Both the position numbers and the translations under genes were made by a program. Positions 8,105 to 32,716 of a DNA stretch of 32,716 bases are shown here, in pieces. The notes below the pieces were generated by a model, which searched no databases, was not told where the DNA came from, and saw only the letters and a program-made list of their open reading frames with translations. Numbering within the stretch: position 1 is the first letter of the stretch; every line of letters starts with the position of its first letter. The DNA lies in assembly GCA_964532395.1 (NCBI GenBank), contig CAZHHS010000002.1, positions 222 to 32,937 of the forward strand, read 5' to 3'. This stretch comes from an uncultured Desulfobacterales bacterium (lineage in GTDB: Bacteria > Desulfobacterota > Desulfobacteria > Desulfobacterales > C00003060).

Positions 8105-8138
8105 TATTTCAGTATTGCATACCGGAAAGGCTACCGAC

Positions 8139-9753: not shown

Positions 9754-10749
9754 TCAAACCACCCCCATCATAACACCCGAATCCGTCGGCCCGTGGAAAG
9801 GCATCCGCTCAATTTGACGGATGCCGGCGCCGGAAAGCATCTCCCCAATCTGTTCTTGCGAATATGCACGCCCTTTAGGGGTGCCCAAGAGCATATTCAA
9901 GGAAAACAGGGCCGGAAACAGGGGGCCGTCCATCGTGTCGTCCAATATGAAATCGTGGACCAGGATCTTGCCCCCCGGTCCGAGTACCGACACCGCTTTT
10001 TCAAGGATTTCCCGACAAGCCTGGGGACCGTGGGCGTGCAGGATATGGGACAGCCAGGTGACATCATATCCGCCGGGAATATCCTCTTTCATATAATCAC
10101 CGGGGACGAACTCAATGCGGTCTGACAGTTCGAACCGCCCGATGATCTTTTCCGCAAACGGTCGCGTCGTCGGCAAGTCGTAGACCGTTGCCTTCAAGTC
10201 CGGGTTCCTCAAACAAAAATGAACGGCATAGGTGCCCGGTCCGCCGCCCAGGTCCAACAGCCGGTGACACCCGGAAAGGTCGATCGCTTCTGCCATGGCG
10301 GGCGCCGTACGCATCGCCGTATTGAACATCCCCATGAGAAATGACTCCCGCCATTCCCCTTCGCTGTAAGATGCCCGTTTCCGGACCGGCTTGCCCTCGC
10401 GAACCGCCTCGTCCAACTTCACCCATGATGCCGCCAGATGGTGATGGTGGAGAATCATGTGCCCGATGTACCCGTCGGAATCCTTGCACAGCAGAGACCG
10501 ACCGGCCGGCGTATTGGCAAACCGGTCCCCCTCCTTTTGAAGCAGTTTCATTGCCGTCAGGGCATGAAGAAGCGTCTCCGTGCCCCGTCGATCCCCCTTC
10601 AGTCGCTCTGCGATTGTTTCAACCGAGAGGCTATCATCCCCAATCAGGGTGAAAACCGCCAGTTTGACCCCGGCATGCAACGTACAACTCTGCCAGTAAT
10701 ATCCGGACAGTCCCAACAGACTCCCTTCATGCCATTCCTCGTTTTCCAA
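9754..10749 (-). CDS. Class I SAM-dependent O-methyltransferase (winged-helix dimerisation domain plus Methyltransf_2-like domain)
   Basis: 331 aa with SAM motif LLDLGGGPGTYA, an acidic D after the beta2 strand (VYDLP) and a GDY...D motif. Confidence 0.85.
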   Translation of the reverse strand: MENEEWHEGSLLGLSGYYWQSCTLHAGVKLAVFTLIGDDSLSVETIAERLKGDRRGTETLLHALTAMKLLQKEGDRFANTPAGRSLLCKDSDGYIGHMILHHHHLAASWVKLDEAVREGKPVRKRASYSEGEWRESFLMGMFNTAMRTAPAMAEAIDLSGCHRLLDLGGGPGTYAVHFCLRNPDLKATVYDLPTTRPFAEKIIGRFELSDRIEFVPGDYMKEDIPGGYDVTWLSHILHAHGPQACREILEKAVSVLGPGGKILVHDFILDDTMDGPLFPALFSLNMLLGTPKGRAYSQEQIGEMLSGAGIRQIERMPFHGPTDSGVMMGVV

Positions 10750-10784
10750 ATCAGACCTCCAAGAAACCCACTCTGCGGTTCATC

Positions 10785-14007: not shown

Positions 14008-14188
14008 TTGCCTGTGCGTGTTTCCAACGGCCTACAGGCCCCCAATCCACCCCAATCTTTGGGTGAGCAATTTTCAGGCCACTAGCCCTACCCCCCGGGG
14101 CGGCCGACCGATTCGCCGCCGCTTGAGGCGCAACAGGACCCGGAAGGGGGGATAAGCATGGCATGCCCCCCTTCAACCCGGGTATTTT

Positions 14189-14204
14189 GTATCCACATGG
14201 ATAC
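14189..14204. promoter_or_regulatory. Perfect palindrome GTATCCA-CA-TGGATAC; candidate enhancer (UAS) for the sigma-54 activator
   Basis: It lies 130-145 bp upstream of the -24/-12 promoter. A half-site, GTATCCAC, recurs at 14231-14238. Confidence 0.5.
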
Positions 14205-14333
14205 GGACGCGAAAGATTACTGTGAACAAAGTATCCACTTGGGAGCTCCCCGTCAACGGTAAACTCTGCTCAACGAATGGCGCTACGTTTTTTTATCCAA
14301 ACATATCAAGATGTTATATTTAGCAAGGCGCCC

Positions 14334-14348
14334 TGGCACATCCTTTGC
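14334..14348 (+). promoter_or_regulatory. Sigma-54 (-24/-12) promoter TGGCAC-ATCCT-TTGC
   Basis: Exact match to TGGCAC-N5-TTGC (GG-N10-GC), 60 nt upstream of the zraP-like ATG and divergent from a sigma-54 two-component pair. Confidence 0.8.
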
Positions 14349-14407
14349 CAGTATGGGTTGCCAATTGGTATTGAACAACAACTTAAACAAGAAGGAGGTC
14401 GCAGAAA

Positions 14408-14893
14408 ATGAAAAAATGGATAACCACTTTGGGCATTGTGATACTGGGTGTATGCATCGCCATGCCCGCCTTTGCGGGGCACGGAAAGCGAAAGGGCCAC
14501 GGGTCTTGTTGGAAAGGATCCGATACCCGCGCAAATCTAACAGAGGAACAACAGGCCAAACTCGAGGCACTGCACGACGACTTCTACGCGGACACTGCCG
14601 AAATCCGACATGAACTCTGGGCCAAGACGGATGAGCTGGGGATTCTTCTCGACCGCACCGATCCCGACCTGGAAAGGGCGAAATCCTTGCAGAAAGATAT
14701 CAGCGAACTCAAAGGCCGAATGGCCCAAAAGCGACTCCACCGTAATATCGAAGCCCGGAAGATCGCGCCCGACGCGTCGATCGGCCGTGGTCACGGCAAA
14801 GGTCCGCACGGCCGGCGCCACATGAGGGGCGGTCAAGGAGAAGGCCATCCCTGGGGAAGGGGGCGAGGGTGTCAGCGTCCCTGCGGGTATTAA
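14408..14893 (+). CDS. Periplasmic CpxP/Spy/ZraP-family protein with Gly/His/Arg-rich tails
   Basis: Signal peptide (ILGVCIAMPAFA), LTxxQ motif (LTEEQQAKLEAL), helical core, and His/Gly-rich N- and C-terminal segments (GHGKRKGHG; GRGHGKGPHGRRHMRGGQGEGHPWGRGRG). Confidence 0.8.
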   Translation: MKKWITTLGIVILGVCIAMPAFAGHGKRKGHGSCWKGSDTRANLTEEQQAKLEALHDDFYADTAEIRHELWAKTDELGILLDRTDPDLERAKSLQKDISELKGRMAQKRLHRNIEARKIAPDASIGRGHGKGPHGRRHMRGGQGEGHPWGRGRGCQRPCGY

Positions 14894-15368: not shown

Positions 15369-17360
15369 TCACACGGCCTCGGCAGTGTCCACCTTTTTAT
15401 GCAGGTCATTTAATCCGGACAGTCGACGACTACGAACCAGAGGTAGATGGAGACCCAATACCGCACTATGCGGATTGCAAAGAAAATCCATGCGCTTTTC
15501 AACCGATCGGAAGGTGGATTCCCCGGATTGAAACCTTTCGATCTGCTCGGCGACGTCCTCAGTGGCCGCCGCTGCCACGTCAAGCCCCAGCCGTTGCGCT
15601 ATTTCCTGTAAGATCTCTCTGTGAAGACGGGACGCCGCCAGGGGAGAAATGACAGGGGAAAGCGTACGCAGGTTCTCCGCGTAATCCACGATCGTACCAT
15701 GACTCTCATAGACCGTGGCAGCGGGAAGTACGAGGTCGGCCTCGCAGGCAAGGCCTGACAAATGCGAACATTGGGCGATCACGAATCCCGTGTTCTCCGG
15801 TCTCGAAACCGCCACGTCTCCCAATGCATATAAGACGTCCGGGCTATCCGTATCGATGGTCGGCTTCCCGGTAATCCCCATCAAGAGCGTGCCTTTTCCG
15901 TTGGCCTCAAAAGGGACGGATAAGACCTGACCCTTTTTCAAGGCCAAATTGCGAGATGCCTGGAAGAAAGCCGGTATCGTCACGATCACCGGCCGATTTG
16001 CCTGGGCGTAAAGCGCCGCCGCCGCTTGCTCGGCTTCATGGTTCACCGACACCGGGTTTTGTTCGCTATTCAGTATTTCGGTCAGGCGCTGAATCGAGGC
16101 GAGCTCGTCCCCGGCAAGGACTGCGTGCGCCACCTGAGCAATCCGTGTATCCGCGGCATTAACGACCACCAGTTTGGTACCACGCCGAACCATGTGTCGC
16201 AGCGTAACGTCCAGTGCAGGAAACACGCCCTCCCATTGGGACGGCGCCAATCCGACCAGCACAACCAGATCCGCCGCCCGAATATCCACCTGTCCCGCAA
16301 TAAGCGACGGCACATCGCCGTATAACCCGACCGTCGAAGACGCCGCCTGAAAGCCGGCCGCCTCGGTCAAGCGGCGAACGGTCAGTAAGTCTTCGTTTAA
16401 CAGATTTCCCGCGGTCACGATTTCCTTGGTTGTGGCCCTTTGACAGGCCTCGATGAGGACAGACAAAGCATCTTCCCAGGCAACCGTTGTAAACGTTCCG
16501 TCAATTTTTTGTAAAGGGGTGCTCACCCGGGTATCATCATCGATACCGTCAAACCCGAATCGGCCGACGGCACAGATATACTCTTTCGCCGTATCGCCGT
16601 CACCGGGGGCGTTTACTTTTTCCACTCTGCCCGCCCGGACGCTTACCGACGTGCTGCACGCGTCCGCACAAGACAGGCATATAGAAGGACGACGGACATA
16701 CTCCCATTCTCTACCCCGGTATCCGCCGGCAGGGACCTCGGTAATGGCATTGACGGGACATACCTCTACACAACTGCCGCAAAAGGTACACCCCGATTCT
16801 TGAAGCGGTCGGTCGGCCGCAGTGGTGACACGGGATCCCACACCTCGGCCAAAAAAATCGAGGACCGACGTGCCCTGGGCCTTACAGACGCGGACACACC
16901 GGCCACACAGAACACAATAGTTGGGGTCTCGACGGATAAGGGTATTGTCTTGGGCCACGGGAAAATCAAACCGCTTTTCAGTAAATGAAGATTTCTTGAG
17001 ACCCAGGTCGTAAGCATATTCCTGTAATCTGCATATACTCGCCTTCGTACAAGTCATGCAGTCCATGGGATGCATAGAAAGGATCAAATCGATGACATAC
17101 CTTCTATGTGTTCGGAGGACTTCGGTTTGCGTACTTACCTCCATGCCGTCCTTGGCCCGTGTGGTGCAAGCCGCCATGGGTCGTTTCAAACCGGCCACCT
17201 CCACCAGGCAGAGTCTGCACGCCCCGATTCCCTTATACCCTTTCAAATGGCAGAGGCTGGGGATGTGGATTCCCGCCTCTTCGGCAGCATCCATTAGCGT
17301 GATGCCTTCCGGCACCTCAAGCACTTGTCCGTCCATTGTAAGTTGTATTGAACCGGCCAT
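15369..17360 (-). CDS. NuoG/HydA-N-terminus-like Fe-S subunit with a degenerate molybdopterin-oxidoreductase domain (no catalytic site seen)
   Basis: It has a 2Fe-2S ferredoxin fold (C...GACRLCLVEV...C), a His/Cys cluster (HPMDCMTCTKASIC) and 2x[4Fe-4S] (CVLCGRCVRVC, CTFCGSCVEVCP). A MopB-type CLSCADAC...C cluster is followed by ICAVGRFGFD. There is no Cys/Sec-His active-site motif, no H-cluster motif and no C-terminal cap domain. Start set at ATG 17360 (GGGAGGA SD); the track start 17417 is the alternative. Confidence 0.8.
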   Translation of the reverse strand: MAGSIQLTMDGQVLEVPEGITLMDAAEEAGIHIPSLCHLKGYKGIGACRLCLVEVAGLKRPMAACTTRAKDGMEVSTQTEVLRTHRRYVIDLILSMHPMDCMTCTKASICRLQEYAYDLGLKKSSFTEKRFDFPVAQDNTLIRRDPNYCVLCGRCVRVCKAQGTSVLDFFGRGVGSRVTTAADRPLQESGCTFCGSCVEVCPVNAITEVPAGGYRGREWEYVRRPSICLSCADACSTSVSVRAGRVEKVNAPGDGDTAKEYICAVGRFGFDGIDDDTRVSTPLQKIDGTFTTVAWEDALSVLIEACQRATTKEIVTAGNLLNEDLLTVRRLTEAAGFQAASSTVGLYGDVPSLIAGQVDIRAADLVVLVGLAPSQWEGVFPALDVTLRHMVRRGTKLVVVNAADTRIAQVAHAVLAGDELASIQRLTEILNSEQNPVSVNHEAEQAAAALYAQANRPVIVTIPAFFQASRNLALKKGQVLSVPFEANGKGTLLMGITGKPTIDTDSPDVLYALGDVAVSRPENTGFVIAQCSHLSGLACEADLVLPAATVYESHGTIVDYAENLRTLSPVISPLAASRLHREILQEIAQRLGLDVAAAATEDVAEQIERFQSGESTFRSVEKRMDFLCNPHSAVLGLHLPLVRSRRLSGLNDLHKKVDTAEAV

Positions 17361-17401
17361 TGATCCTCCCTGACACACCTTTTCATCCACGGTCTGCACA
17401 A

Positions 17402-18013
17402 TCAGTAAACACCGCATTTATACGCTTCAGCAGCGATCTTCGTCGCCGGTTTGTCCGCCACGACAATGGCCCCGGCAGGACATACCTCGAGACAATCCCC
17501 CCTTTTGAAGCATCGTTTCTCCCGGATCTCGAAAGGCGAAAACCCTGTGTCATGCAATGCCGTTTTCTCCATACCCAAAATGGCATTGTATTCACACACG
17601 GCCTTACACTCACCACACATGGTACACCTGTCGGGAACAATCCGATACTCGATGAACGCCTCACATGCCCGGTCCGAGCACTTTCCCTCCGTATGCGCTG
17701 CAAAGGCGTCATATGCCATACATTCCAACAAATAGGCGGCCGTGTTGCCGCCCTTCTTGCACAATGAGCCGACCTGCATATTTTCCGCTATATATCGGAG
17801 GGCAGCCAAATCTCGCTGGTCACCCCGTCCGTCGGCGATGCGAGCCAGCCTGGCTTTTGCCTCAACGGTGCCAAGGGCACAGGGAAAACACCGACCACAC
17901 ATGACCTCTGAAAGAAACCGGTCCACATAGGCGGTACACCTTTGGACGGGGCAGCGCTTTTCCTCCGCCTCTGCTCTTAGCCGGGCATCAATCGTGCGTT
18001 TCTTTGACTCCAC
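17402..18013 (-). CDS. Small Fe-S protein: NuoF-C-terminal-like [4Fe-4S] domain fused to a 2x[4Fe-4S] ferredoxin domain
   Basis: CGRCFPCALGT...(about 40 aa)...SLCKKG mirrors the N3-cluster motif SCGKCxPCR...LC of NuoF. It is followed by CTMCGECKAVCE and CFKRGDCLEVCP. Confidence 0.75.
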   Translation of the reverse strand: MESKKRTIDARLRAEAEEKRCPVQRCTAYVDRFLSEVMCGRCFPCALGTVEAKARLARIADGRGDQRDLAALRYIAENMQVGSLCKKGGNTAAYLLECMAYDAFAAHTEGKCSDRACEAFIEYRIVPDRCTMCGECKAVCEYNAILGMEKTALHDTGFSPFEIREKRCFKRGDCLEVCPAGAIVVADKPATKIAAEAYKCGVY

Positions 18014-18021
18014 ACATCACC

Positions 18022-20361
18022 TCAATAGATCTCACGCGCCATGTAAACCACTTCCGGCAAGAGATAGGACACCAAGTCTCTGTAGGTAATGATACCCGCG
18101 ATCTTATCGTCCTCCACCACCGGCAGGTGCCTCTTCTTCTGGTCCGAAATCACCGACATTGCGGCGCTCACGTCCACGGACGCCTTAAATGTAATCAGGT
18201 TTCGGCTCATTGCGCTACGGATCGGTCGGCTCCCAAAAGCCACCCCCTTGGCTGTGAGATGAACCACGTCTCTTTCCGTAAAAATACCCACCAGCTGGTC
18301 ATCTTCGTCCACGACCAGAACCGCGCCGATGTTTTTATCCACCATAAGCTTAACCGCTTCCGAGATGGGGGTGTCTTGGGAAACGGTATGTACGACTGAG
18401 GGCTTCGATTCCAAAACATCTCGCAGTGTCATATGGACTCTCCTTTCGATGACCTCCAGACTCTCAGCAGGGATCTTGAATTCTTCCGTAAGTTCAAATT
18501 GCCGCTTTTTGAGGATGCGAACCGCGTCGACCGGACAGGCCTCATAGCAAGCTCCGCATTTTGTGCAATACGCCTGGTCCACGAAATAGGCGTCTTTGAC
18601 AACCTTTATGGCGTCGAACGCACAGGCATCTTCACAAAACCCGCAGCGGAAACACTCACCGACGTTTATCACGAAAAAACCGGTTCCTTTACAACTCCCG
18701 GCTCGACAGTATCGGTCATATACGTGTTCCCGATACTCTTCTCGGAAATACTTGATGGCGCTTAAAACCGGGTTGGGCGCCGACTGTCCCAGGCCGCACA
18801 GCGAGCCCTCCTGAACGAAACGCCCCAACTCGACCAGTCGCTTGATGTCTCCCCGTTCGCCCCGGCCTTGGCTGATTTTTTCCAATAGTTGGAGCATTTG
18901 ATAGGTGCCGATCCGGCAGGGCGGACACTTCCCGCACGACTCCGCCTGGGTAAAAGCCAGGAAATAGCGGGCCACATCGACCATACAGGTGTCCTCGTCG
19001 AGAACAACCATGCCGCCCGAACCGACCATGGAACCCACCTTGTTCAAAGAATCAAAGTCGACCGGCATATCCAGATGCTTCTCGGGAATACAGCCCCCGG
19101 ACGGCCCCCCGGTTTGTACCGCTTTAAACCGCTTTCCCCCTTGTATGCCGCCACCAATATCGAAAATGACCTCCCTCAAGGTAATGCCCATCGGAACCTC
19201 GACCAAACCCGTGTTGACCACTTTTCCCGTAAGGGCAAAGACCTTGGTACCCGGGGAGGTCCGAACCCCGATACGGCTGAACCATTTCCCGCCCTTTTCA
19301 ATGATGGGTGGCAGGCATGCGTACGATTCGATGTTGTTCAGATTGGAGGGGTATCCCCAAACCCCGCCGCCCGGATTGGACAGCCGCGGCGGTCTGGGTC
19401 TCGGAAACCCCCGTGCCCCCTCGATGGACGCCACCAGCGCCGTCGATTCACCGCATATGAATGCCCCCGCCCCCTCCCGAATATCCAGGTGCAGGGACAT
19501 CCCGGTCCCCAGAATATTTTCGCCCAGCAAGCCCAACTCCTCGGCTTGGTTGATGGCGATTCTCAGATTCTTCACCGCCCGTGGATATTCATGACGCACG
19601 TAGATGAATCCGTACGATGCCCCGATAGCATACGCACACAGGAGCATCCCCTCGATCAGGCTGTGCGGATCGCCCTCCATGATCGCACGATCCATGAAAG
19701 CACCGGGATCTCCCTCATCGCCGTTGGCAATGACAAACTTCACATCCCCCGGGGCCTTCTTGGCGTGCCGCCACTTGGTACCCGCCGGGAATCCCGCGCC
19801 CCCTCTACCCCGCAAATAGGCCGTCTCGACCTCCCGGAGGACGTCGTCGGGAGTCATGGACCGGAGCGCCTTCTGAATGGCGGTATATCCACCCGTAGCT
19901 ATATAGTGCCGTATGTTCGTCGGATCGATGCGCCCGTTCTTTTTAAGGACTATGCGGTCTTGTTTTCGGTAAAACGGGATAGAAGAGAGCCGCTCGCACG
20001 GCTGTGACGTGTCGCGATCCATATAGAGCAGACGCCGTATCGGCGGCCCGGCAGACACGGCATTGGTAACCAACGCGGCGGCGTCCGATTCTCTCACGCG
20101 CTGATAGAAATACCCTTTGGGGTCGATTTGCACCAGCGGCCCTTTCTGACAAAGCCCTTGACATCCCGTTTTGATTACCTCGACATGGGAACCTTTCCGT
20201 TTGTTTTCCGCCTCAATGCCCTCGACTAACCGACCGGCACCCGAAGCCAGACAGGCAGTCCCCGTACAGACCCGAATGCGTTCCCTGTCCGGAGGGAAAA
20301 CCTCATCACGTAAATATTGGCGCCAGCTATCGAGTTCTTGAACACTCATTGCATATGTCAT
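18022..20361 (-). CDS. NuoF/HydB-like NAD(P)H-binding flavoprotein with N-terminal Trx-like [2Fe-2S], C-terminal 2x[4Fe-4S] and a C-terminal CBS pair
   Basis: N-terminus CTGTAC...CQGLC. Core motifs GRGGAGFPAG, GDEGDPGAF and ESCGKCPPCRIGT...SLCGLGQSAPNP. Ferredoxin motifs CFRCGFCEDAC and CTKCGACYEACP. The last 136 aa form two CBS repeats (ISEAVKLMVDKNIGAVLVVDEDDQLVGIFTERD ; VSAAMSVISDQKKRHLPVVEDDKIAGIITYRD). Confidence 0.9.
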   Translation of the reverse strand: MTYAMSVQELDSWRQYLRDEVFPPDRERIRVCTGTACLASGAGRLVEGIEAENKRKGSHVEVIKTGCQGLCQKGPLVQIDPKGYFYQRVRESDAAALVTNAVSAGPPIRRLLYMDRDTSQPCERLSSIPFYRKQDRIVLKKNGRIDPTNIRHYIATGGYTAIQKALRSMTPDDVLREVETAYLRGRGGAGFPAGTKWRHAKKAPGDVKFVIANGDEGDPGAFMDRAIMEGDPHSLIEGMLLCAYAIGASYGFIYVRHEYPRAVKNLRIAINQAEELGLLGENILGTGMSLHLDIREGAGAFICGESTALVASIEGARGFPRPRPPRLSNPGGGVWGYPSNLNNIESYACLPPIIEKGGKWFSRIGVRTSPGTKVFALTGKVVNTGLVEVPMGITLREVIFDIGGGIQGGKRFKAVQTGGPSGGCIPEKHLDMPVDFDSLNKVGSMVGSGGMVVLDEDTCMVDVARYFLAFTQAESCGKCPPCRIGTYQMLQLLEKISQGRGERGDIKRLVELGRFVQEGSLCGLGQSAPNPVLSAIKYFREEYREHVYDRYCRAGSCKGTGFFVINVGECFRCGFCEDACAFDAIKVVKDAYFVDQAYCTKCGACYEACPVDAVRILKKRQFELTEEFKIPAESLEVIERRVHMTLRDVLESKPSVVHTVSQDTPISEAVKLMVDKNIGAVLVVDEDDQLVGIFTERDVVHLTAKGVAFGSRPIRSAMSRNLITFKASVDVSAAMSVISDQKKRHLPVVEDDKIAGIITYRDLVSYLLPEVVYMAREIY

Positions 20362-20376
20362 CTTTGTCCAAGCCTT

Positions 20377-20862
20377 TTAGGTATCGATGATTCGCTGAAT
20401 CACTTGACCAACCCCGTCACAAGAGAGTTCTCCCACCACGTCGCTGTTGACGGAAATGACGGGAGCCAACCCGCAACACCCGATGCAACTCACCGTTTCC
20501 AAAGTCATGGCCAGATCCGGGGTGGTACCCCCGACCGGCACCTGGAAGCGGTCTTGGAGGAGGGACAGCACCTCGGAAGCCCCCTTCACATGACACGCCG
20601 TACCCATACAGACCTTCACCACTGTCCTGCCTCTCGGTGAAAAGTGGAACTGGTCATAGAAACTGGCCACTCCGTATACCTCCGCCAACGGAATAGACAA
20701 TCTCTGTGCAAGCGCTTGTAATACTTCAGGGGCCAGATATCCCAATTCATCCTGGAGTCGATGGAGAAGAGGAATCAGCAGGCCTCTGTCTCTCGCGAAT
20801 GCAGGGGTTGTTTGGGCCGCTCTTTCCAGGGCGCCACTCATCATCAGTGCGTCGATATCCAT
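20377..20862 (-). CDS. NuoE/HydC-like thioredoxin-fold [2Fe-2S] subunit
   Basis: 161 aa with the CMGTACHVKG...CIGCCGLAP pattern typical of NuoE/HndA/HydC. Confidence 0.9.
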   Translation of the reverse strand: MDIDALMMSGALERAAQTTPAFARDRGLLIPLLHRLQDELGYLAPEVLQALAQRLSIPLAEVYGVASFYDQFHFSPRGRTVVKVCMGTACHVKGASEVLSLLQDRFQVPVGGTTPDLAMTLETVSCIGCCGLAPVISVNSDVVGELSCDGVGQVIQRIIDT

Positions 20863-24907: not shown

Positions 24908-25609
24908 TCATGCCGAACCATCAGAAAGCTTAGATAATGCGGCTCGCGCAAGACCGCTCACCGTGGACGTAACCAATGCATTGTCGACAAAAAGTGAAAT
25001 TTCTCGGTCATCGTCCAGACACCCTTTTAGGTTCTCCCGTGCCGCTTCAACGCCCAACAACCCTGCAGCCCGAGCGGACAGACCTCTGACGGTAGCATCC
25101 TGAAACGCCAGGTGGGGAATCACGCAATCCTTCCCCTCTTTCACCAGGTGAGGCTTTACTTCGGCCACCCGGCCGATCGCCCACAAGGCCCCCCGCTGAA
25201 GGGCCTCATACTCCAGGTAGTTGCGTTCCGGACAAACATAGGAAACCAAAAGGTCGGCGAACTCTTCTCCCAGCCGGTCGTGAACAGCCACCGCCTCCCC
25301 CATCGCCTCCGGAACCCCCCATCCGATCCCTCCGGATTCATCGTTTAACATCCACATAAACCGACGCATGATCACCCGAGCCCCTTCCATATCCTGATCA
25401 GCCAAATTGGCGACCACACGCCCCGCCGCCGTAATCGCCCGCCACCGGATTATCTCCTCGCCGGTCAGAAAAAGGGACATAAGGGGATTGATCACCTGTC
25501 GCGGGGGCTCCCGAAGAAGCACCGACAAGGTATCAGAGAAGTCAGGGGTATGAAGGAGTTCCCGGAGATCTTCCTTGCGTCTTTTCCATTTCCTGGTCGT
25601 TTTCTTCAT
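24908..25609 (-). CDS. HEAT/armadillo-like helical-repeat protein of unknown function
   Basis: 233 aa, basic N-terminus, repeated helical segments (RWRAITAAGRVV, ALQRGALWAIGRVA, VRGLSARAAGLLG). Family not identified with confidence. Confidence 0.55.
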   Translation of the reverse strand: MKKTTRKWKRRKEDLRELLHTPDFSDTLSVLLREPPRQVINPLMSLFLTGEEIIRWRAITAAGRVVANLADQDMEGARVIMRRFMWMLNDESGGIGWGVPEAMGEAVAVHDRLGEEFADLLVSYVCPERNYLEYEALQRGALWAIGRVAEVKPHLVKEGKDCVIPHLAFQDATVRGLSARAAGLLGVEAARENLKGCLDDDREISLFVDNALVTSTVSGLARAALSKLSDGSA

Positions 25610-25629
25610 CCTTAGGACGGGTCATGTAG

Positions 25630-25719
25630 GGGAACCGCTTGACGGAATTGTAGGCCCCGAGTGAAGCGGAGTTCCTTTCCGCACCGGACGAAAAGCGTTG
25701 TACCGGGTGCAAAACTTGA
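25630..25719 (+). repeat. Copy 2 of the 89-90-nt two-hairpin repeated element
   Basis: See copy 1. It fills the 120-nt spacer between the grx::ahpF-like stop (25730) and the HEAT-like start (25609). Confidence 0.75.
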
Positions 25720-25729
25720 ATTACCCTGG

Positions 25730-26920
25730 TTACCTCTGGTTCATTATGTACGTATAAGCTGAAAGCGCCGCTTTTGCGCCTTCTCCGGCAGCCACCACGA
25801 TCTGTTTAAACGGCACACTCGTAACATCGCCGCAGGCAAACACCCCCGCCAATCCGGTACGACATTCGGCATCCACCAGAATCTCTCCGACACCGTTTAC
25901 GTTCAGCGTGTCCACCACCATCTCCGAATTCGGACGCAGACCGATTTCAACAAAGATCCCGGACACGGGCAGCTTCTTTACTTCACCACCGTTCACCGAC
26001 CGGATCTCGACTGCTTCCACATTCGATTCGCCCAAAATCCGGATCACTTCATGCTCAAGAAACACCTCAATCTTGTTCGAATGGCTGACTTTGTCTTGCA
26101 GGACCTGATCCCCGGTCAAGGAGGTCAGAGACACCAGGTAAAGCCGGTCGGCCACTTTGGAAAGATCCAGCGCCGCCTCCAGAGCGGAATTCCCGCCCCC
26201 GGCAATCGCCACATCGAGACCGGCAAACAGGGGCGCATCACAGGTAGAACAATACGCCACGCCCATCCCCGTCAATTCCTTTTCGCCGGGGACCCCCAGC
26301 CGTTTGGGCCGCTTGCCCGTCGCAATAATCACCGTTTTGGCAAAATAGATTTCGTCTTCCGACGTCACCACCTGCTTGATCTTGCCGGCCGCAACCAGGC
26401 GGGCTACGTTCACACCCACCTGTTTTTCCAAGTGGTACTTATCGACGTGCTCCTCAAACCGGGTGACCAGCTCCGCCGTATCCATCTGAGTAAACCCCAG
26501 ATAATTGTCGACATCGTAGGCCCACGTAACCTGCCCGCCGATGTCCTGAGTCAAAATCAGGGTTTTCATTAGTTTACGGGCGGCATAAACGGCGGCACTG
26601 AGCCCGGCCGGACCGCCGCCGATGATAATGACGTCATACAGGGTGTCCACCCACCCTTTGTCCTCACCTCCCAACAACCGGCTCAGCCCGCCCGTGGCTT
26701 CCAGATTGACCAGATCACTGTACCCACCGATCGGTTGGTCGGAAACCAGGATCTGGGGCAAGCGCCCGCCGCCGGTTTCCTCCCTCATCTGTGCCCACCC
26801 CTGGGACCCGTATGGCGCGGCTATCACTTCAAACGGAATGCCTTTTTCCTTCAGAAAGGATTTGGCACGATCACAGAAAGGGCATCCCTCGGAAGCATAT
26901 ATCTTTAGACGCCCCACCAC
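25730..26920 (-). CDS. Glutaredoxin-domain fusion to an AhpF/TrxR-type flavoprotein disulfide reductase
   Basis: N-terminal Grx fold with CPFC. FAD motif DVIIIGGGPAGLSAA, redox disulfide CSTCD, second dinucleotide motif IAGGGNSALEAA. The C-terminus (GEILVDAECRTGLAGVFACGDVTSVPFKQIVVAAGEGAKAALSAY) closely resembles AhpF as I recall it. Confidence 0.85.
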   Translation of the reverse strand: MVGRLKIYASEGCPFCDRAKSFLKEKGIPFEVIAAPYGSQGWAQMREETGGGRLPQILVSDQPIGGYSDLVNLEATGGLSRLLGGEDKGWVDTLYDVIIIGGGPAGLSAAVYAARKLMKTLILTQDIGGQVTWAYDVDNYLGFTQMDTAELVTRFEEHVDKYHLEKQVGVNVARLVAAGKIKQVVTSEDEIYFAKTVIIATGKRPKRLGVPGEKELTGMGVAYCSTCDAPLFAGLDVAIAGGGNSALEAALDLSKVADRLYLVSLTSLTGDQVLQDKVSHSNKIEVFLEHEVIRILGESNVEAVEIRSVNGGEVKKLPVSGIFVEIGLRPNSEMVVDTLNVNGVGEILVDAECRTGLAGVFACGDVTSVPFKQIVVAAGEGAKAALSAYTYIMNQR

Positions 26921-26942
26921 ACCTCCGGATAATTAATGACCA

Positions 26943-27215
26943 TCAGTCGGCGTTCAGAGATGAACTTCCTTCAAGGCACATGAGGGCCTGCTCCAGGCTC
27001 TTTTGATCAAACCCGACCATCACTTGATTACAGACCGAGATCACGGGAACCCGGAGGGCCCCGCCCGAGATCGTGCGCATTTCCTCAAGCGCCGCCCTCT
27101 CCGACGTGACATCGTAATCGATAAACTCAACACCTTTTTGCGACAAGAACTCCTTCGCTCGCTTACAGTGCGGTCAAGTCGGTGAGCTGTAGATCTTTAC
27201 TTCTTGATCACTCAT
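26943..27215 (-). CDS. Selenocysteine-containing YruB/NrdH-like glutaredoxin (UxxC active site), 90 codons with in-frame TGA at 27176..27174
   Basis: The track shows only the C-terminal 67 aa from an internal TTG. Extending upstream in frame gives MSDQEVKIYSSPT-U-PHCKRAKEFLSQKGVEFIDYDV..., the canonical Grx beta1-CxxC-alpha1 region with TGA at the first Cys position. The ATG at 27215 has an AAGGAG SD 7 nt upstream, and a hairpin starts 11 nt after the TGA. Confidence 0.7.
27140..27162 (-). promoter_or_regulatory. Candidate bacterial SECIS hairpin
   Basis: The mRNA segment GCGAGCGAAGGAGUUCUUGUCGC starts 11 nt after the UGA. It has a GCGA/UCGC lower stem, bulges, a GAAG-type upper stem and a G/U-containing apical loop. 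Confidence 0.4.
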
Positions 27216-27293
27216 CGAAACACTCCTTACTTCTCAAACTCAATTCGTGTAAAGGGCAAATGCCCGTTGGTCTTATGCGGACCCCCTTTAGTC

Positions 27294-27452
27294 CTACTCC
27301 TTTTCAAAATCCTCTTTGGCCGCCCCACACACGGGACAGGTCCAATCCGCCGGAAGATCTTCAAACTTGGTCCCCGGCTCGATACCGTTGTCCGGATCCC
27401 CCTGGGCCGGATCATACACATAGCCACATACCGTACATACATACTTGTCCAT
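27294..27452 (-). CDS. rub: Rubredoxin (52 aa)
   Basis: Not in the ORF track (<60 aa). The translation [52 protein letters not shown] has the two CxxCG knuckles and the conserved YxYDP / FEDLPxDWxCPxCG signature. GGAAAGGAG SD. Confidence 0.92.
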
Positions 27453-27504
27453 GTCTCAAACTCCTTTCCAATAGTTTAGTTTCAAATCGAAACCCCATAC
27501 CCTT

Positions 27505-28470
27505 TCAACTCCCAACCAAGTCTTTGACTTTTTCCGCGATCTTGTCACGCGTTTCCCGCATGAACTCAACCGGCTTTCCCGCCGGGTCGGCAAAATCCCA
27601 TACCTCCATAGGCGAATCGGCGAAGACGGGACATCCCTTTTCACACCCCATGGTGACCACCAAGTCAGGCACGCCGACACGACCGACAACCGTCTCCAGA
27701 GATTTCGGACTGGCATACCCCATGTCCACACCCTTTTCACTCATCACCTGTTGCATAACCGGATCCACCTGATCGGCAGGGGAATCGCCACCACTATGGG
27801 CTTCAATCTTGTCCCCCGCCATTTGCTCGGCAAAGGCAGCCGCCATCTGGCTACGACAGGCATTTTGGGTACAGACGAAGACGACCTTCTTCCGTTTTAA
27901 AAAGGGGGCCACCATTTGCTCAGCCCTTTTTCGAACATCGTCCAATGCCGTGGGATGACGGGCGATATCTCCGGCGGCTTCAATCTTTCTAAACGTCAGG
28001 GATCCGTCAAAACCGGCTCCGACGGCGTCAAAAAAGTATTTCGCCGTCAGGCTCACCCCCTCGAAGAGGTTCTTTCCCTTGGTCGCCCCCAGGGACAAGA
28101 GTAATCCCGACCGAAAGTCCCTTTTGGGATCGTCGAGCTTGTGGACGTACTTCCTGGCCCAAAGCGCCTGGGTCCGATCAATAAGCCCCTTCATGTATGC
28201 AGTGGCACCATAAAAGAATATCGGCGTAGCCATCACCACGAGGTCCGCACGACGCAAAAGGGGATACATCTTCTGCATATCATCGTCAATCGGACAAAAC
28301 CCTTCCCGCTCGCAGGTGCCGCACTCCACACAGGGGGTGATCTTCTCTCTCGACACATCCACACGCAGACATTCGGCGCCCAGTTGCTCGGCGGTTTCAA
28401 GAAATGTCGAAAGGGCAATACCCGTGTTCCCCTTCACTCGAGGGCTTCCCTGCAACCCAAGAACAAACAT
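27505..28470 (-). CDS. Fusion of an iron-sulfur flavoprotein (Isf/NADPH-dependent FMN reductase fold) and a low-molecular-weight PTPase/ArsC-type arsenate reductase
   Basis: Residues 1 to about 185 are a flavodoxin-like fold with the compact Isf motif CVECGTCEREGFC (Cx2Cx2Cx5C). Residues from about 190 to 321 carry the LMW-PTP P-loop VVFVCTQNACRSQMA (Cx5R-S) and a downstream GCEKGCP Cys pair. Confidence 0.8.
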   Translation of the reverse strand: MFVLGLQGSPRVKGNTGIALSTFLETAEQLGAECLRVDVSREKITPCVECGTCEREGFCPIDDDMQKMYPLLRRADLVVMATPIFFYGATAYMKGLIDRTQALWARKYVHKLDDPKRDFRSGLLLSLGATKGKNLFEGVSLTAKYFFDAVGAGFDGSLTFRKIEAAGDIARHPTALDDVRKRAEQMVAPFLKRKKVVFVCTQNACRSQMAAAFAEQMAGDKIEAHSGGDSPADQVDPVMQQVMSEKGVDMGYASPKSLETVVGRVGVPDLVVTMGCEKGCPVFADSPMEVWDFADPAGKPVEFMRETRDKIAEKVKDLVGS

Positions 28471-28520
28471 GATATACTCTCCTAAAGCACGACTCGCCTA
28501 CCTCGTTTGACCCTTGGGGG

Positions 28521-30476
28521 TTACATCTCCCGGCGGGCCGCCATATCAAACAAGACCCGCTCTCTCGCCTTATCGATACCCAGGGTCTTTCTCTTTTCGT
28601 CAATATGAGAAATCATCAGTCGCGCCATCTCCTGAGGATCCGGGGCAAACCCCCACTTGCCCATACCCTGCGTCTCAAGGCCGCTGAACAACAGCTCATG
28701 GAAACCGGTCTTCTCCACAATGGGGAAGGTAACACCAAAGACCGTATACACCCCGGAGGCCACGAAATAGTGGCCGATCGAAATGGCCTTTTCACTCATC
28801 CACTCCGGTGCCGCCCCCGCCGCCGGGAGTTCGGCAATGCTGTTGCCCAGCCCCCCCTCACGAACCATTTCACTGGCAGCAATGAGAATCCGGCTGTTGT
28901 CGACACAGGATCCGCATCCCAGTACCGGCGGCATACCCACCGTTTCACAAACTTCCGCCAATCCCGCGCCCGCCATCTCGGCAGCCTCGGGACGGTAAAA
29001 TCCCTGTTTGGCCAAGGCGATTTGAGAGCACCCGGTCTGTAAAACCAAGACATCATTTTTGATGAGTTCCTTGACCAACTCCACATGGACCCAGTCTTGT
29101 TTGGCCCGGGGATTGGTACATCCCACCACACCGGCCACCCCGCGGATACGGCCATTGATAATGTTGTCATTGAGTGGCGTATAGGAAGACCGGAAACTGC
29201 CGCCCAGCATATAATTGATGTATTCGTGAGAGAACCCGTGAATCCCTTCGTTTCGGTCCTCCGGAATGTCTACGGGAATTCGGCGATTTTTGAACCGTTC
29301 GATGGCCAACTCCATAATCCGGTCCGTACACTTGCGGGGACTCAGTTCCTCAAATTCGATATGCTCAGCGCCATCGATGTGACACCGGGGGTTGGTGGTG
29401 AAAAACTTGGTGCCGTAGCATTGAGCCACTTTGCTCAAACTCTGCTTGATGCATTGTACGTCCACCCCCATGGCATCCACCGCCCCGGTGATCAAGACGG
29501 CTTCGGTGGACATGAAATTGCCGGCGTGGGGAATTCCATGGCGGGACAACATCTCCGCCCCCGAGCAGCACATCCCCACCAGGTTGATCCCTTCCGCACC
29601 GGCACTTTTAGCCGACTCAAGAAATTGGGGATCGTTTGCCGATGCCAGTATGGACTCAAACAGGTTCGGCTCGTGACCATGGATAATCACATTGACCTGG
29701 TTCTTCTCCAACACGCCCATATTGACATCCCCGGCCGTGGGTACGGGCGTGCCGAAGAGGATATCGGAAATCTCGGTGGCCACCATCGACCCCCCCCACC
29801 CATCGGCCAAGGCCGTGCGGCTGCACTGTCGGGTAATGTTCTCGTAATCCTGGTCCACGCCCATGTGGGTCCGGTGCATGAGTTCCATGATTTCCCGCAT
29901 CGCCCCACGGGGAACTATCCCCTGTTTTCGCCAGGTTTCCAAAGTCGCGGGCGGCACCCGCTTGGCGAACGGAATTTCTCCTTCCACCTGCATATAGGTC
30001 CGCTCCAATTCCTTGTATAAGTCTTCCGCAATCTCCTTTGCGTCACGACCCTCTGTATCGATTTCTACGGATTGAGCCACTTTTTTCAGTTTATCCGTAT
30101 CTTTGATCTTGTACTCGGTGAGTTTTCCCTCCACCACCTCTCTGAATACGTCAAGCATACTCATGCCGTGATCCGTATGTGCCGCCGCGCCACTGGCCAC
30201 CATCCGGGCAAAATTTCTGGCCATAATGGTGTCGATCGTAGCCCCACACACCCCCACCTTGCCGTAGGGATCCTTGGCATTCAACCGACAGGGCCCCATG
30301 GAACAGTGTTTACAACAGGCGGAGTCAGCCCCGATCGGACAGGCCTTCATCGTGGCGGCCCGGTCAAACGCCGTTTCCACCCCGTCAGCTTTGGCCTTCT
30401 CCAACATCTGAGCCGTCGCGTCACATGACGTTACTTCATGAACATTGAGTTGTTTGCGCTTTTCCGTCTTCGCCAT
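28521..30476 (-). CDS. cooS: Anaerobic Ni,Fe carbon monoxide dehydrogenase catalytic subunit
   Basis: 651 aa. The N-terminal D/B-cluster pattern is CPIGADSACCKHCSMGPCRL...C. C-cluster ligand contexts IIHGHEPN, GMCCSG, DVQCI, GCTNPR, TGCS and GCGSCVDNSR are all present. Confidence 0.92.
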   Translation of the reverse strand: MAKTEKRKQLNVHEVTSCDATAQMLEKAKADGVETAFDRAATMKACPIGADSACCKHCSMGPCRLNAKDPYGKVGVCGATIDTIMARNFARMVASGAAAHTDHGMSMLDVFREVVEGKLTEYKIKDTDKLKKVAQSVEIDTEGRDAKEIAEDLYKELERTYMQVEGEIPFAKRVPPATLETWRKQGIVPRGAMREIMELMHRTHMGVDQDYENITRQCSRTALADGWGGSMVATEISDILFGTPVPTAGDVNMGVLEKNQVNVIIHGHEPNLFESILASANDPQFLESAKSAGAEGINLVGMCCSGAEMLSRHGIPHAGNFMSTEAVLITGAVDAMGVDVQCIKQSLSKVAQCYGTKFFTTNPRCHIDGAEHIEFEELSPRKCTDRIMELAIERFKNRRIPVDIPEDRNEGIHGFSHEYINYMLGGSFRSSYTPLNDNIINGRIRGVAGVVGCTNPRAKQDWVHVELVKELIKNDVLVLQTGCSQIALAKQGFYRPEAAEMAGAGLAEVCETVGMPPVLGCGSCVDNSRILIAASEMVREGGLGNSIAELPAAGAAPEWMSEKAISIGHYFVASGVYTVFGVTFPIVEKTGFHELLFSGLETQGMGKWGFAPDPQEMARLMISHIDEKRKTLGIDKARERVLFDMAARREM

Positions 30477-30506
30477 TGGTTCCTCCTATACAGCCATGAC
30501 ACTATG

Positions 30507-31727
30507 TTACATCATATCTTGGTCACTTTGTTCCACGGCCTTATCGATTTGAGTCTTGAGCTGCGGTGGGAGCCCCGGAATGTCCACGCTCAAGAAGCCT
30601 CGAACGATGGTGGCCGTCGCCTCATCTTCACTCAGACCACGGGACATGAGATAGAGGATTTCTTCCTGGGCGATCTTACCCACGGCTGCTTCGTGAGACA
30701 TCTCCACCCCTTCCGCTTTGCCTTGAAGTTCCGGTATCGCATGAATGCCGCCTCCGTTTAAGATCAGCCCACGACATTCCAGATGCGCTTTCACGCCGGG
30801 CTGCTCGCCGACGAGATCTCCACGGGCGACCACGTCCGCCCCGTTGGTAATGGCTCGCGCCACGATTTCCGCCCGCGTTTCCGGTTCTTTTAAAAAGATT
30901 CGCCCCCCCACGTCGATTTCCGACCCTTTACTGCCCACCACAAGGCTGTAAAACCGCGCCACGGCGCCCTTGCCGATCAGATGGGTGGTGGGATATGTCT
31001 GAAGGGATTTAACCGGCTTCATACAAATGTAATTATTTAGAAACAGCCCCCCTTCCTCGACTTGCCCGACCGAGCGGGGCCGAACCATCATATCCTCAGC
31101 CCAATTGTGAATCATGGTGAAGCTGAGCTTGGCATTCTTCTTTACAAAAAATTCGGAGATCCCCACATGCAACCCCTTTTTTAGGTGGGGCGCCGTTGCA
31201 CAACCGGTTATGATGTGCAGTTCCGAGTCCTCTTCCGCAATGATGATGTTATGCACGTTTTGACTCAAGCCGTGTTTTTCCAGATATAGACAGGCTTGCA
31301 CCGGATAGACCACACGACTCCCCGGAAGGGCGCGAATCACATAGCCGTCGTGCAGATCGAGTTTCGCCCGTGCGGTATACTTATCCGTATCCACCGAGGC
31401 CAGCTTCCAGTAATAGTCTTTCACCCAATCATACTGCTCAAGGGCTTTTTTGATGGGGATTAATTCCAAACCGTCCTGTTTGGCGTGACTGTGGATCACG
31501 GTGGAATCTTTTTGAATATACGTCCCGGATCGGCCCTGTTCAGTGGTATCGATGCCGGCCATAATCAATCGATTTTTATCCGCTTCAGTCAGGCTATTCA
31601 GATCTTCCAAATAGTCATGTGGCACCGGCCCGGAATCATAGGCCGCCAAATCGATGTCCGTACCCAATGCCGCCTTTTTGTTGATCGCCTTTTTCGCCTT
31701 CTCATCTAAAACGTGCATTTGACACAC
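30507..31727 (-). CDS. sufB: SufB/SufD-family Fe-S cluster assembly scaffold protein (short form)
   Basis: 406 aa with a beta-helix-type repeat region and a C-terminal ...HEAAVGKI..E.ILYLMSRGLSEDEA motif typical of SufB/SufD. It overlaps the sufC stop. Confidence 0.8.
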   Translation of the reverse strand: MCQMHVLDEKAKKAINKKAALGTDIDLAAYDSGPVPHDYLEDLNSLTEADKNRLIMAGIDTTEQGRSGTYIQKDSTVIHSHAKQDGLELIPIKKALEQYDWVKDYYWKLASVDTDKYTARAKLDLHDGYVIRALPGSRVVYPVQACLYLEKHGLSQNVHNIIIAEEDSELHIITGCATAPHLKKGLHVGISEFFVKKNAKLSFTMIHNWAEDMMVRPRSVGQVEEGGLFLNNYICMKPVKSLQTYPTTHLIGKGAVARFYSLVVGSKGSEIDVGGRIFLKEPETRAEIVARAITNGADVVARGDLVGEQPGVKAHLECRGLILNGGGIHAIPELQGKAEGVEMSHEAAVGKIAQEEILYLMSRGLSEDEATATIVRGFLSVDIPGLPPQLKTQIDKAVEQSDQDMM

Positions 31728-32461
31728 TCCTCATATCCCACTCGACTGATACATCTAAATATTTCTCTTGGATTGCTTGTACAGGTCAACACACCGTTAT
31801 AGAGCACTTGGCCCTTGTCGGCGGTAATGTAATCCAAGATAAAACCCGTGTGAGTGATGATCAAACCCATTCGGGTTCTTTCCTGATGCATCTCCTTCTG
31901 GCTCTTCTCCGGACTGATTTTGAAATCTCTTTGCAACAACTGGCTGATCGTGTTTCCAATGAGCGAAATATTTTCTAGATCTACGCCGGATTCAGGCTCG
32001 TCGAAAAGCAGGAGGTCCGCTTTTTGGGACATCAGCTGCAACAACTCGGAGCGCTTGATCTCCCCCCCGGAGAAACCGGCATTGATATCCCGTTCCAGAA
32101 AGTCCGAGAAATTGACCGACTCCGCGAGCGCGTCGACATCCACGGCATCGGAGGCACAGATCTCCACCATCTGCCGGGTTTTCACCCCATTGATCGTAGG
32201 CGGACGTTGATACGACATACCGATGCCCAATCGGGCCCGTTCGTTGATCGGCATATGCGTGATATCTTCGCCCTTGAACACGATCTTGCCGCCGGTGACC
32301 CGATACTGGGGATATCCCATAATCGTCATCAACAGGGAGGTTTTCCCGGAGCCGTTGGGCCCAAACAGTATATGGGTTTCTCCCACCCCGATCTCCAAAT
32401 CGATATGCCGCAAAATTTCTTTGTCTCCCAGCTTTACCTGTAAATCTTCGACTTGTAGCAT
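31706..32461 (-). CDS. sufC: Fe-S cluster assembly ABC-type ATPase SufC
   Basis: Walker A GPNGSGKTS, ABC signature FSGGEIKR, Walker B LLLFDEPESGVD and H-loop ITH. Confidence 0.9.
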   Translation of the reverse strand: MLQVEDLQVKLGDKEILRHIDLEIGVGETHILFGPNGSGKTSLLMTIMGYPQYRVTGGKIVFKGEDITHMPINERARLGIGMSYQRPPTINGVKTRQMVEICASDAVDVDALAESVNFSDFLERDINAGFSGGEIKRSELLQLMSQKADLLLFDEPESGVDLENISLIGNTISQLLQRDFKISPEKSQKEMHQERTRMGLIITHTGFILDYITADKGQVLYNGVLTCTSNPREIFRCISRVGYEECVKCTF

Positions 32462-32716
32462 CTCTTTTCTCCAAAACCACAGGGTCTACAAAAAGTGGGG
32501 ATACGTCGCTGATACCCCTTTTCGGATTCATCTTTTCTTCCGTTTATCACTCATACCATAAAAGAGACAGTGTTTCTAAGCATTTTGCCCGACCATCGTA
32601 TAACAAGCTGATAATATAACCCTTTTCTCGGCAACGGCCGGCGTGGGCGTTCCCTGATACCAGGCTAATAGGCATATCTGACGGCTGCCCAGATATTGCT
32701 GTTGTTTTCAAATTGG

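Follow-up and report, generated by a model that had tools for sequence, protein, structure and literature searches.

We describe a run of eight co-directional minus-strand genes at positions 24908-32461 of a 32.7-kb stretch of DNA (the window) from an uncultured bacterium of the Desulfobacterales (phylum Desulfobacterota, or Thermodesulfobacteriota), which extends from a gene for a SufC-like ATPase, through the carbon monoxide dehydrogenase (CODH) gene cooS, to a gene of the DVU0298 family. With a confidence somewhat better than even, we read the run as a rubredoxin-centered operon for defense against oxygen and reactive oxygen species (ROS) and for repair, in which CooS was recruited as a low-potential electron source. 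Judging from gene neighborhoods, this CooS family habitually sits in oxygen-stress islands of sulfate-reducer-type bacteria. The eight genes, identified from the open reading frame (ORF) list and from Pfam and NCBIfam profile searches of the window ORFs, are the following, in order from sufC.

31706..32461, minus strand: SufC-like ABC ATPase, 251 aa (ABC_tran; TIGR01978 172 bits, below 212.8)
30507..31727, minus strand: SufB/D-like Fe-S scaffold protein, 406 aa (SUFBD_core 140 bits, 1.2e-40)
28521..30476, minus strand: CooS, catalytic subunit of a monofunctional Ni-CODH, 651 aa (TIGR01702 593 bits, cut-off 478, full-length)
27505..28470, minus strand: fusion of an Isf-like FMN domain to an LMWP/ArsC-like domain, Isf::LMWP (FMN_red and LMWPc Pfam matches)
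27294..27452, minus strand: rubredoxin, 52 aa, with CTVC and CPVC (NF045768 107.6 bits, cut-off 90)
26943..27215, minus strand: glutaredoxin-like selenoprotein (Sec-Grx), 90 aa, with T-U-P-H-C and an in-frame UGA at 27174-27176 (Glutaredoxin Pfam match)
25730..26920, minus strand: Grx(CPFC)::AhpF/TrxR-like flavoprotein disulfide reductase (Grx::TrxR), 396 aa (TIGR03140 315 bits and TIGR01292 289 bits, both below cut-off)
24908..25609, minus strand: DVU0298-family HEAT-repeat protein, 233 aa (NF045662 226.8 bits, cut-off 75)

Neighborhoods of cooS in relatives

Close homologues of the window CooS number in the thousands, the best 120 of them all at least 79% identical to it; its exact sequence has no database record. 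We retrieved the best 80 species-level genome loci, all from Desulfobacterota metagenome-assembled genomes (MAGs) with CooS 76-81% identical, and based neighbor statistics on 33 loci in which the two flanks of cooS each span 5 kb or more (CooS 76-88% identical to that of the window). ROS or thiol-redox genes were found within 10 kb of cooS in 28 of these 33 loci; at least one ROS gene was present in 16, at least two in 13 and at least three in 9, and 21 had at least one thiol-redox gene. By Pfam, the neighbors encode rubrerythrin (Rbr), desulfoferrodoxin (Dfx), flavodiiron protein (FDP), flavodoxin (Fld), Tpx/Redoxin, ferritin, cytochrome bd and Ni-superoxide dismutase, together with Fur/PerR, glutaredoxin (Grx), a protein like the catalytic subunit of ferredoxin:thioredoxin reductase (FTR), Trx2, single-cluster ferredoxin and multiheme cytochrome. 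The typical island occupies one strand in the order Rbr-Tpx-Dfx-Fld-(DUF4177)-CooS-Rd-FDP-(CydAB)-DVU0298-...-Grx-FTRb-(Isf::LMWP), with Rd for rubredoxin (for example L033, L037, L046 and L048). Rubrerythrin was co-directional with cooS in 17 of the 76 relatives surveyed. In 10 loci, cooS has within 400 nt on its downstream side the gene for a rubredoxin 70-82% identical to that of the window; by the tree labels, FDP comes next in seven of the ten. In a neighbor-joining tree of the retrieved relatives and the window, CooS split into two sub-clades, and the window fell inside the one carrying the co-directional ROS island. The neighbors are redox-stress and thiol genes, as an earlier note on this DNA proposed, and comparative genomics strongly backs the oxidative-stress analogy drawn there; what is conserved is the functional theme, the exact gene order being confined to a narrow lineage.

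The same neighborhoods bear on a simpler reading, that a housekeeping SufCB pair, a CO-metabolizing CooS and a redox-stress module are mere neighbors, perhaps co-transcribed, that share no electron flow. Consistent with this, the order of the seven genes from sufC to grx::trxR is not kept beyond close relatives, CooS stands alone or among unrelated neighbors in L003, L022, L045, L055, L074 and L080, and each module also exists separately. However, the spacing of the run is tight (22-78 nt) and no terminators are predicted within it, SufCB joins cooS twice independently, and the ROS/thiol neighbors and cooS-rd pairs are spread over several MAG families at a frequency far above chance for a 20-kb neighborhood. 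We consider simple juxtaposition unlikely.

We also observed a divergent pair of Grx and FTR-catalytic-subunit-like genes, on the opposite strand and ~0.3-3 kb upstream of cooS (for example L005, L008, L021 and L035). With a PAS-sigma54 activator gene beside cooS, this pair characterizes the second of the two CooS sub-clades, whose context is thus one of thiol redox.

A module that also occurs without CooS

Several loci carry the downstream genes of the run and no CooS. Their orders are Rd-Rbr-Dfx-Fld-...-Isf::LMWP-Rd-FDP in L084, Grx-FTRb-Prx-...-Isf::LMWP-Rd-SecGrx-Grx::TrxR-FDP-Fd in L085 and Isf::LMWP-Rd-SecGrx-FDP-Fd-...-DVU0298-like in L086 (Prx, peroxiredoxin; Fd, ferredoxin). By gene order, Isf::LMWP-Rd-(SecGrx)-(Grx::TrxR)-FDP-Fd-HEAT is a conserved module that also occurs without CooS. 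Set against the cooS-rd loci, L084-L086 therefore indicate that Isf::LMWP in some genomes and CooS in others fill the same slot, immediately before Rd(-FDP); in relatives, rubredoxin orthologues 70-86% identical directly follow either cooS or Isf::LMWP. On this comparison, the window lineage has CooS and Isf::LMWP in tandem, has gained SufCB and has lost FDP and Fd from the run. The operon had been described as CODH-centered, which does not fit the recurrence of its Isf::LMWP-Rd-SecGrx-Grx::TrxR-HEAT part without CooS.

The last gene of the run, of the DVU0298 family, is syntenic in L001, a relative with CooS 88% identical, and in L087, a 98%-identical strain, and recurs in the ROS islands of L006, L033, L037, L048 and L086. 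Table 2 of PMC2901600 gives DVU0298 as the locus tag of the CODH gene of D. vulgaris Hildenborough; NCBIfam uses DVU0298 for the HEAT-repeat family, and we took the table entry as a locus-tag slip that is irrelevant to that family. As a separate observation, a gene for a multiheme cytochrome of ~500 aa repeatedly comes after DVU0298-family HEAT genes (L006 14184-16828, L033 6720-10419, L048 17945-20167). Grx/FTR-B-like genes come next after the cytochrome in L006 and L033, and L033 also has a Ni-superoxide dismutase gene.

CooS and its missing partners

CooS retains the D-cluster ligands C46 and C54, the B-cluster ligands C55, C58, C63 and C77, and a canonical set of C-cluster ligands (H268, C304, C342, C453, C483 and C524), as well as two catalytic residues, H100 and K563. 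In two solved clade-E CODHs, 6T7J and 9FZY, the same motifs line up with those of the window enzyme, which is ligand-complete, as the earlier note had judged; the comparison uses the numbering of CODH-II of Carboxydothermus hydrogenoformans (ChCODH-II). In a PDB sequence search the best solved relatives were the clade-E structures 6T7J, 6YTT and 6B6V. Scores were 585 bits for Thermococcus AM4, 580 for C. autoethanogenum and 551 for D. vulgaris in clade E, and 504 for ChCODH-IV, 447 for ChCODH-II and 397 for R. rubrum in clade F; the weakest match, at 301 bits, was the inactive clade-D ChCODH-V (clade labels of solved CODHs per PMC13056359). By this ranking, CooS is likely to belong to clade E.

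None of the usual partners of a CODH accompanies the gene. No CbiA/CooC-type, CooF-type, ACS/CFeSP or Ech gene was found in the window, which includes merely 255 nt upstream of sufC. Sequence further upstream came from L087, which was found by a metagenome scan with Isf::LMWP that otherwise matched mostly distant single-domain proteins. Upstream of sufC, L087 has co-directional MMPL, TP_0789-like and 473-aa genes, and L001 shares these genes and has, in addition, an unknown ORF that is divergent; there was no cooC, cooF, ACS or Ech gene there in either locus. Among 76 relatives, neither cooC nor a four-cluster cooF lay beside cooS, except for MinD-type ORFs in L034 and L038 that carry ferredoxin motifs (MinD-Fer4) and are not typical of CooC. 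The reported lack of adjacent cooC, cooF, ACS and Ech genes thus holds across the clade. The window locus is not a canonical coo operon of cooS with cooC/cooF, ACS or Ech.

A different role for CooS would be protective: it would scavenge CO, an inhibitor of hydrogenases and of heme and diiron O2 reductases, and would not serve to supply electrons; in a variant, the enzyme would catalyze a non-CO reaction, like HCP-like enzymes. Relatives with cooS beside cytochrome bd and FDP genes are consistent with scavenging, and high-affinity scavenging of CO has been ascribed to ChCODH-IV (cited in PMC13056359). However, scavenging and electron donation are not mutually exclusive, the C-cluster ligand set is canonical, unlike that of clade D/HCP-like variants, and ChCODH-V is the weakest PDB match. 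We regard a scavenging or non-CO role in place of electron supply as very unlikely.

The SufC/SufB pair

The two genes at the head of the run match Suf proteins at the family level. In addition to the SufC score given above, the SufB/D-like protein scored 171 bits with TIGR01980 (cut-off 346) and 185 with the SmsB model (cut-off 650), and fell below cut-off with all SufB, SufD and SmsB models, so that with the equivalog cut-offs all missed the profile scores justify the Suf labels at family level alone. No sufS, sufD or sufE adjoins the genes, which form a SufBC-only pair. SufC is 94-96% identical in L001 and L087 and 73% identical in L043. In L043, a locus on another branch of the CooS tree, the order cooS-sufC-sufB-grx (9986-14354) places SufCB orthologues 70-73% identical to those of the window downstream of cooS, and Rbr, Dfx and flavodoxin genes lie upstream of cooS. 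Gene order and tree position indicate that SufCB was joined to this CooS family twice, independently, in the window lineage and in L043. We also considered the clade-B "ABC transporter" context as an explanation for sufC, and rejected it: that context consists of NitT/TauT transporters, and CooS is not clade-B-like.

The thiol-redox proteins of the run

The Isf-like domain of the fusion protein has a compact motif, C47-x2-C50-x2-C53-x5-C59, that fits the Cx2Cx2Cx4-7C of iron-sulfur flavoproteins (ISF), and scored 69 bits with FMN_red. Searched alone against PDB sequences, it gave weak FMN_red-type matches, none bearing ISF as depositor name. In an AF2 model of the fusion the LMWP domain was confident and the Isf domain had a pLDDT of 40-70. 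The LMWP domain contains a C200-x5-R206 P-loop, C276, C280 and D295, and aligns with the three-Cys ArsC of C. glutamicum (3T38), its best PDB match. Across 20 homologues, the Cys, Arg and Asp residues of these motifs were invariant or at least 90% kept, with C47, C50, C53 and C59 invariant. With 2902 matches at E <= 1e-20, annotated generically, Isf::LMWP is a large uncharacterized family. Scores against the NCBIfam ArsC cut-offs (71.3 vs 157.6; 61.5 vs 174.3) miss the equivalog level and support the ArsC label at family level alone. In the window and in L001, L085 and L086, no ars genes adjoin Isf::LMWP. L084 has a permease-like ORF that matches ArsB/CitMHS in Pfam; it lies ~6 kb from Isf::LMWP on the opposite strand and is cut by the locus end. 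An analogy between FMN_red::LMWP and an ArsH-ArsC pair was rejected, as there was no ArsH model match and the Fe-S motif is of the ISF type.

The small glutaredoxin scored 67.5 with NF041212 (cut-off 66) and 77.8 with the YruB/Cp9-type model TIGR02196 (cut-off 88.55). A TGA occupies the same codon in four loci representing three lineages (the window with L001/L002, L085 and L086). The orthologues in L001/L002, L085 and L086 are 70-78% identical, with the frame kept on both sides of the TGA and the motif T-U-P-H/Y-C, and ~35 paralogous Grx genes have Cys at the position of the TGA (C-x-x-C). We assign selenocysteine (Sec) here, in agreement with the original description of the protein as a selenoprotein, because the TGA codon is conserved, and not from a selenocysteine insertion sequence (SECIS), for which there was a single weak candidate.

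27140..27162, minus strand: candidate SECIS-like hairpin (GCGA...GAA-GGAG-UUC...UCGC), recognized by eye, 12 nt after the UGA

The predicted fold of this candidate was no better than that of shuffled sequences (z = 0.46), and an alifold of the four orthologues was without clear covariation. No selA, selB, selC or selD was found in the window, and Rfam and tRNA scans of the window found nothing.

The best PDB match of the flavoprotein was the C-terminal FAD/NADH half of AhpF (1FL2, 243 bits). It has GGGPAG at 101, CSTC at 224 and GGGNSA at 241, as expected for FAD-binding, NAD(P)H-binding Rossmann and CxxC elements. The residues that set pyridine-nucleotide specificity are not kept: both the HRR motif of NADPH-dependent thioredoxin reductase (TrxR) and the acidic residue of AhpF are absent. 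There is no peroxiredoxin in the window; one is present in the relative L085.

These proteins had been proposed to form a linear relay, in which CooS takes electrons from CO and hands them to rubredoxin or Isf, from where they reach first the Grx::TrxR flavoprotein and next Sec-Grx; the last acceptor would be the ArsC-like domain or a metalloid, disulfide or peroxide target. All the components do adjoin one another, the three-Cys, Trx-coupled pattern seen in 3T38 recurs in the ArsC-like domain, and a flavoprotein without the HRR motif and the AhpF acidic residue leaves room for a donor other than a pyridine nucleotide. However, the flavoprotein is closest to the NADH/FAD half of AhpF and keeps its dinucleotide motif, with nothing pointing to reduction by rubredoxin or Isf; the structures 6GNA-6GND, which we take to be ferredoxin-dependent reductases of the FFTR type, score merely half as well against it as AhpF. 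In addition, the Rd/SecGrx/TrxR module occurs elsewhere without CooS, the ArsC-like domain has no ars genes nearby in the contexts sampled, and rubredoxin normally feeds diiron enzymes, not flavoprotein disulfide reductases. A linear relay that uses the flavoprotein and has an arsenate-type end-point is therefore weaker than the reading of the run as a ROS-defense operon, and we judge it improbable.

Layout and boundaries of the run

The genes are closely spaced. sufC and sufB overlap by 22 nt, and the gaps that follow are 30 nt from sufB to cooS, 50 nt from cooS to isf::LMWP, 52 nt from isf::LMWP to the rubredoxin gene, 78 nt from there to the Sec-Grx gene, 22 nt from the Sec-Grx gene to grx::trxR and 120 nt from grx::trxR to the DVU0298-family gene. 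A consensus scan predicted no terminator-like sites in these intergenic gaps, and placed one upstream of sufC.

32498..32518, minus strand: terminator-like hairpin (consensus scan alone), between the preceding co-directional gene and sufC

This hairpin probably marks the upstream boundary of the operon; in L087, the upstream co-directional 473-aa gene stops 192 nt before sufC. At the other end, the run stops after the gene at 24908-25609 because the next gene is convergent. The earlier note had described seven co-directional minus-strand genes at 25730-32461 with an overlap or gaps of 22-78 nt. We reproduced those coordinates and that spacing, and found that the unit does not end there: the DVU0298-family gene is syntenic in relatives, and therefore belongs to a cluster that reaches beyond 25730.

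Regulatory signals were sparse. No sigma54 promoter was found in the 255 nt of the window upstream of sufC, and there were six weak sigma54-type matches upstream of cooS across 76 loci, despite a PAS-sigma54 activator gene adjoining cooS in many relatives. Alignment of the upstream regions of the window and L001 gave short conserved blocks and no recognizable operator.

A proposed rubredoxin-centered defense and repair operon

Rubredoxin donates electrons to rubredoxin:oxygen oxidoreductase (ROO)/FDP, rubrerythrin and desulfoferrodoxin, and Methanosarcina ISF reduces O2 and H2O2 using electrons from CODH-reduced ferredoxin. In the reading that we favor, the five genes from isf::LMWP to the DVU0298-family gene are the conserved core, and in this lineage CooS and the SufC/SufB pair became attached on its upstream side. 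CooS would oxidize CO and pass low-potential electrons straight to rubredoxin, to the Fe-S/FMN Isf domain, or to both, without CooF; its Ni would be inserted by CooC/AcsF encoded elsewhere. The rubredoxin and Isf carriers would in turn feed enzymes that reduce O2, H2O2 and superoxide. Such terminal reductases, encoded within the island in relatives, would lie elsewhere in this genome, or the Isf domain itself may do the job. In parallel, the AhpF-like flavoprotein would probably take electrons from a pyridine nucleotide and keep its own Grx domain and Sec-Grx reduced, and these two would re-reduce disulfides, including that of the three-Cys ArsC-like domain. SufCB would rebuild Fe-S clusters damaged by oxidants.

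Several observations weigh against this reading. The D-cluster motif of CooS is Cx7C, not the CxxC of the O2-resistant D. vulgaris enzyme, and Cx7C is presumably the O2-labile [4Fe-4S] type. We found no precedent in the literature for direct electron transfer from CooS to rubredoxin. The terminal O2/ROS reductases (FDP, rubrerythrin and desulfoferrodoxin) are absent from the window, and the exact seven-gene order is found in L001/L002 and L087 only, a narrow lineage with CooS 88-99% identical. Many members of the other CooS sub-clade have merely the divergent Grx/FTR-B pair and the PAS-sigma54 activator nearby. Finally, we infer a single transcript from the spacing and the lack of predicted terminators alone.

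More speculatively, and with a confidence well short of even, the whole Desulfobacterota-wide subfamily of CooS without CooC and CooF may be a physiological rubredoxin reductase. Trace CO would then be the donor for O2 and ROS reduction by flavodiiron protein, rubrerythrin or desulfoferrodoxin, by way of CooS and rubredoxin, as an anaerobe's CO:O2 oxidoreductase; Isf::LMWP could take the place of CooS in that slot as another input, and in the window the system would be coupled to a Sec-Grx relay and a repair SufCB. Sulfate reducers and their relatives commonly have orphan monofunctional CODHs, which would gain a function if CooS feeds rubredoxin. In that case the CODH-IV stress hypothesis would reach a second clade and phylum, and CO would be one more reductant with which strict anaerobes survive oxic pulses in sediments. 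The analysis also points to the widespread, unstudied Isf::LMWP fusion (~2900 matches) and to the DVU0298/HEAT family as candidate parts of that defense.

Other genes in the window

Minus-strand genes at 15369-20862 encode a NuoE-like protein, a NuoF-like protein of 779 aa that has two CBS domains, an NADH_4Fe-4S/Fer4 protein of 203 aa and a NuoG/FdhA-like protein of 682 aa with a Molybdopterin domain and no Molydop_binding domain. Together they may be a bifurcating complex of the Bfu type or one like formate dehydrogenase. Synteny with L001 covers the NuoE-like gene and the first part of the NuoF-like gene, where the L001 locus ends. At 226-4267, also on the minus strand, an NrfD-like membrane protein, a 4Fe-4S protein and a 551-aa multiheme cytochrome c resemble a transmembrane redox complex of the Hmc/Tmc kind. 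The plus strand has a tandem of FdhD/NarQ-family and RseC/MucC-family genes at 7941-9472, near a PAS histidine kinase gene at 5575-7899. At 10785-14893, a Metal_resist (ZraP/Spy-like) gene has as neighbors the genes for a sigma54 response regulator and its adjoining histidine kinase; upstream of the Metal_resist gene is a near-consensus sigma54 promoter, TGGCACATCCTTTGCC, at 14334-14349.

Comparison with known systems

The CODH-IV operon of C. hydrogenoformans consists of cooS-IV, a cooF-like gene, a FAD/NAD oxidoreductase (FNOR) gene and a rubrerythrin gene, and an oxidative-stress role has been proposed for it (Wu et al. 2005, PMC1287953). The idea of a CODH that supplies reductant for the removal of peroxide was put forward there, with different partners (CooF, FNOR and Rbr). 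Like that operon, the window run combines a monofunctional CooS with a flavoprotein oxidoreductase and peroxide-defense proteins, has no ACS or hydrogenase, and fits the proposal of CO as reductant for ROS removal. Unlike it, the window has no CooF, its flavoprotein is Grx::AhpF/TrxR-like and not an FNOR, and rubrerythrin occurs only in relatives, so that none of the three CODH-IV partners of cooS is found in the window; conversely, the window adds rubredoxin, Sec-Grx, Isf::LMWP and SufCB. The earlier note described the CODH-IV context correctly, as the literature confirms, but the match is one of analogy, not shared descent, because ChCODH-IV is a clade-F enzyme whereas the window CooS is closest to clade-E enzymes.

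CODH genomic-context surveys (PMC6344411, PMC13056359) report no rubredoxin or ROS-defense context, and orphan monofunctional CODHs have been noted without pathway context in genome papers (for example PMC2702500). In the literature searched, no paper places CooS within ROS islands of Desulfobacterota, which is not proof of absence.

The compact Cx2Cx2Cx5C in an FMN_red fold is shared with the ISF of Methanosarcina thermophila. Unlike that protein, the window domain is fused to an LMWP/ArsC-like domain and has no match named ISF among solved structures. The LMWP domain in turn resembles the Trx-coupled LMWP arsenate reductases (S. aureus pI258 ArsC and C. glutamicum ArsC1') in its CX5R, two downstream Cys and aligned Asp-Pro; unlike these enzymes, it scores far below ArsC cut-offs, is Isf-fused and has no arsR, arsB or acr3 alongside in the contexts sampled.

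As in the Cp34/Cp9 arrangement of C. pasteurianum, which lies near a rubredoxin gene, the TrxR/AhpF-like flavoprotein of the window adjoins a small YruB/Cp9-type Grx-like redoxin. Unlike Cp34, the window flavoprotein has its own N-terminal Grx domain; unlike Cp9, the small redoxin has Sec for its first Cys; and unlike Cp34/Cp9/Cp20, the operon includes no peroxiredoxin. PMC3720550, citing Reynolds et al. 2002, presents Cp34/Cp9/Cp20 as an NADH-dependent TrxR-like protein, a Grx-like redoxin and a peroxiredoxin, and to that extent agrees with the reductase-redoxin arrangement to which the run had been likened.

A rubredoxin-dependent defense is also known from Desulfovibrio, in which rubredoxin with ROO/FDP, rubrerythrin and desulfoferrodoxin forms an O2 defense (PerR regulon). 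Unlike in Desulfovibrio, the terminal enzymes are missing from the window; relatives encode them in one island, along with a Fur/PerR gene. The rubredoxin hub is the same in both systems. Where the classical input in Desulfovibrio is NADH:rubredoxin oxidoreductase, the slot directly upstream of Rd is filled here by CooS, Isf::LMWP or both.

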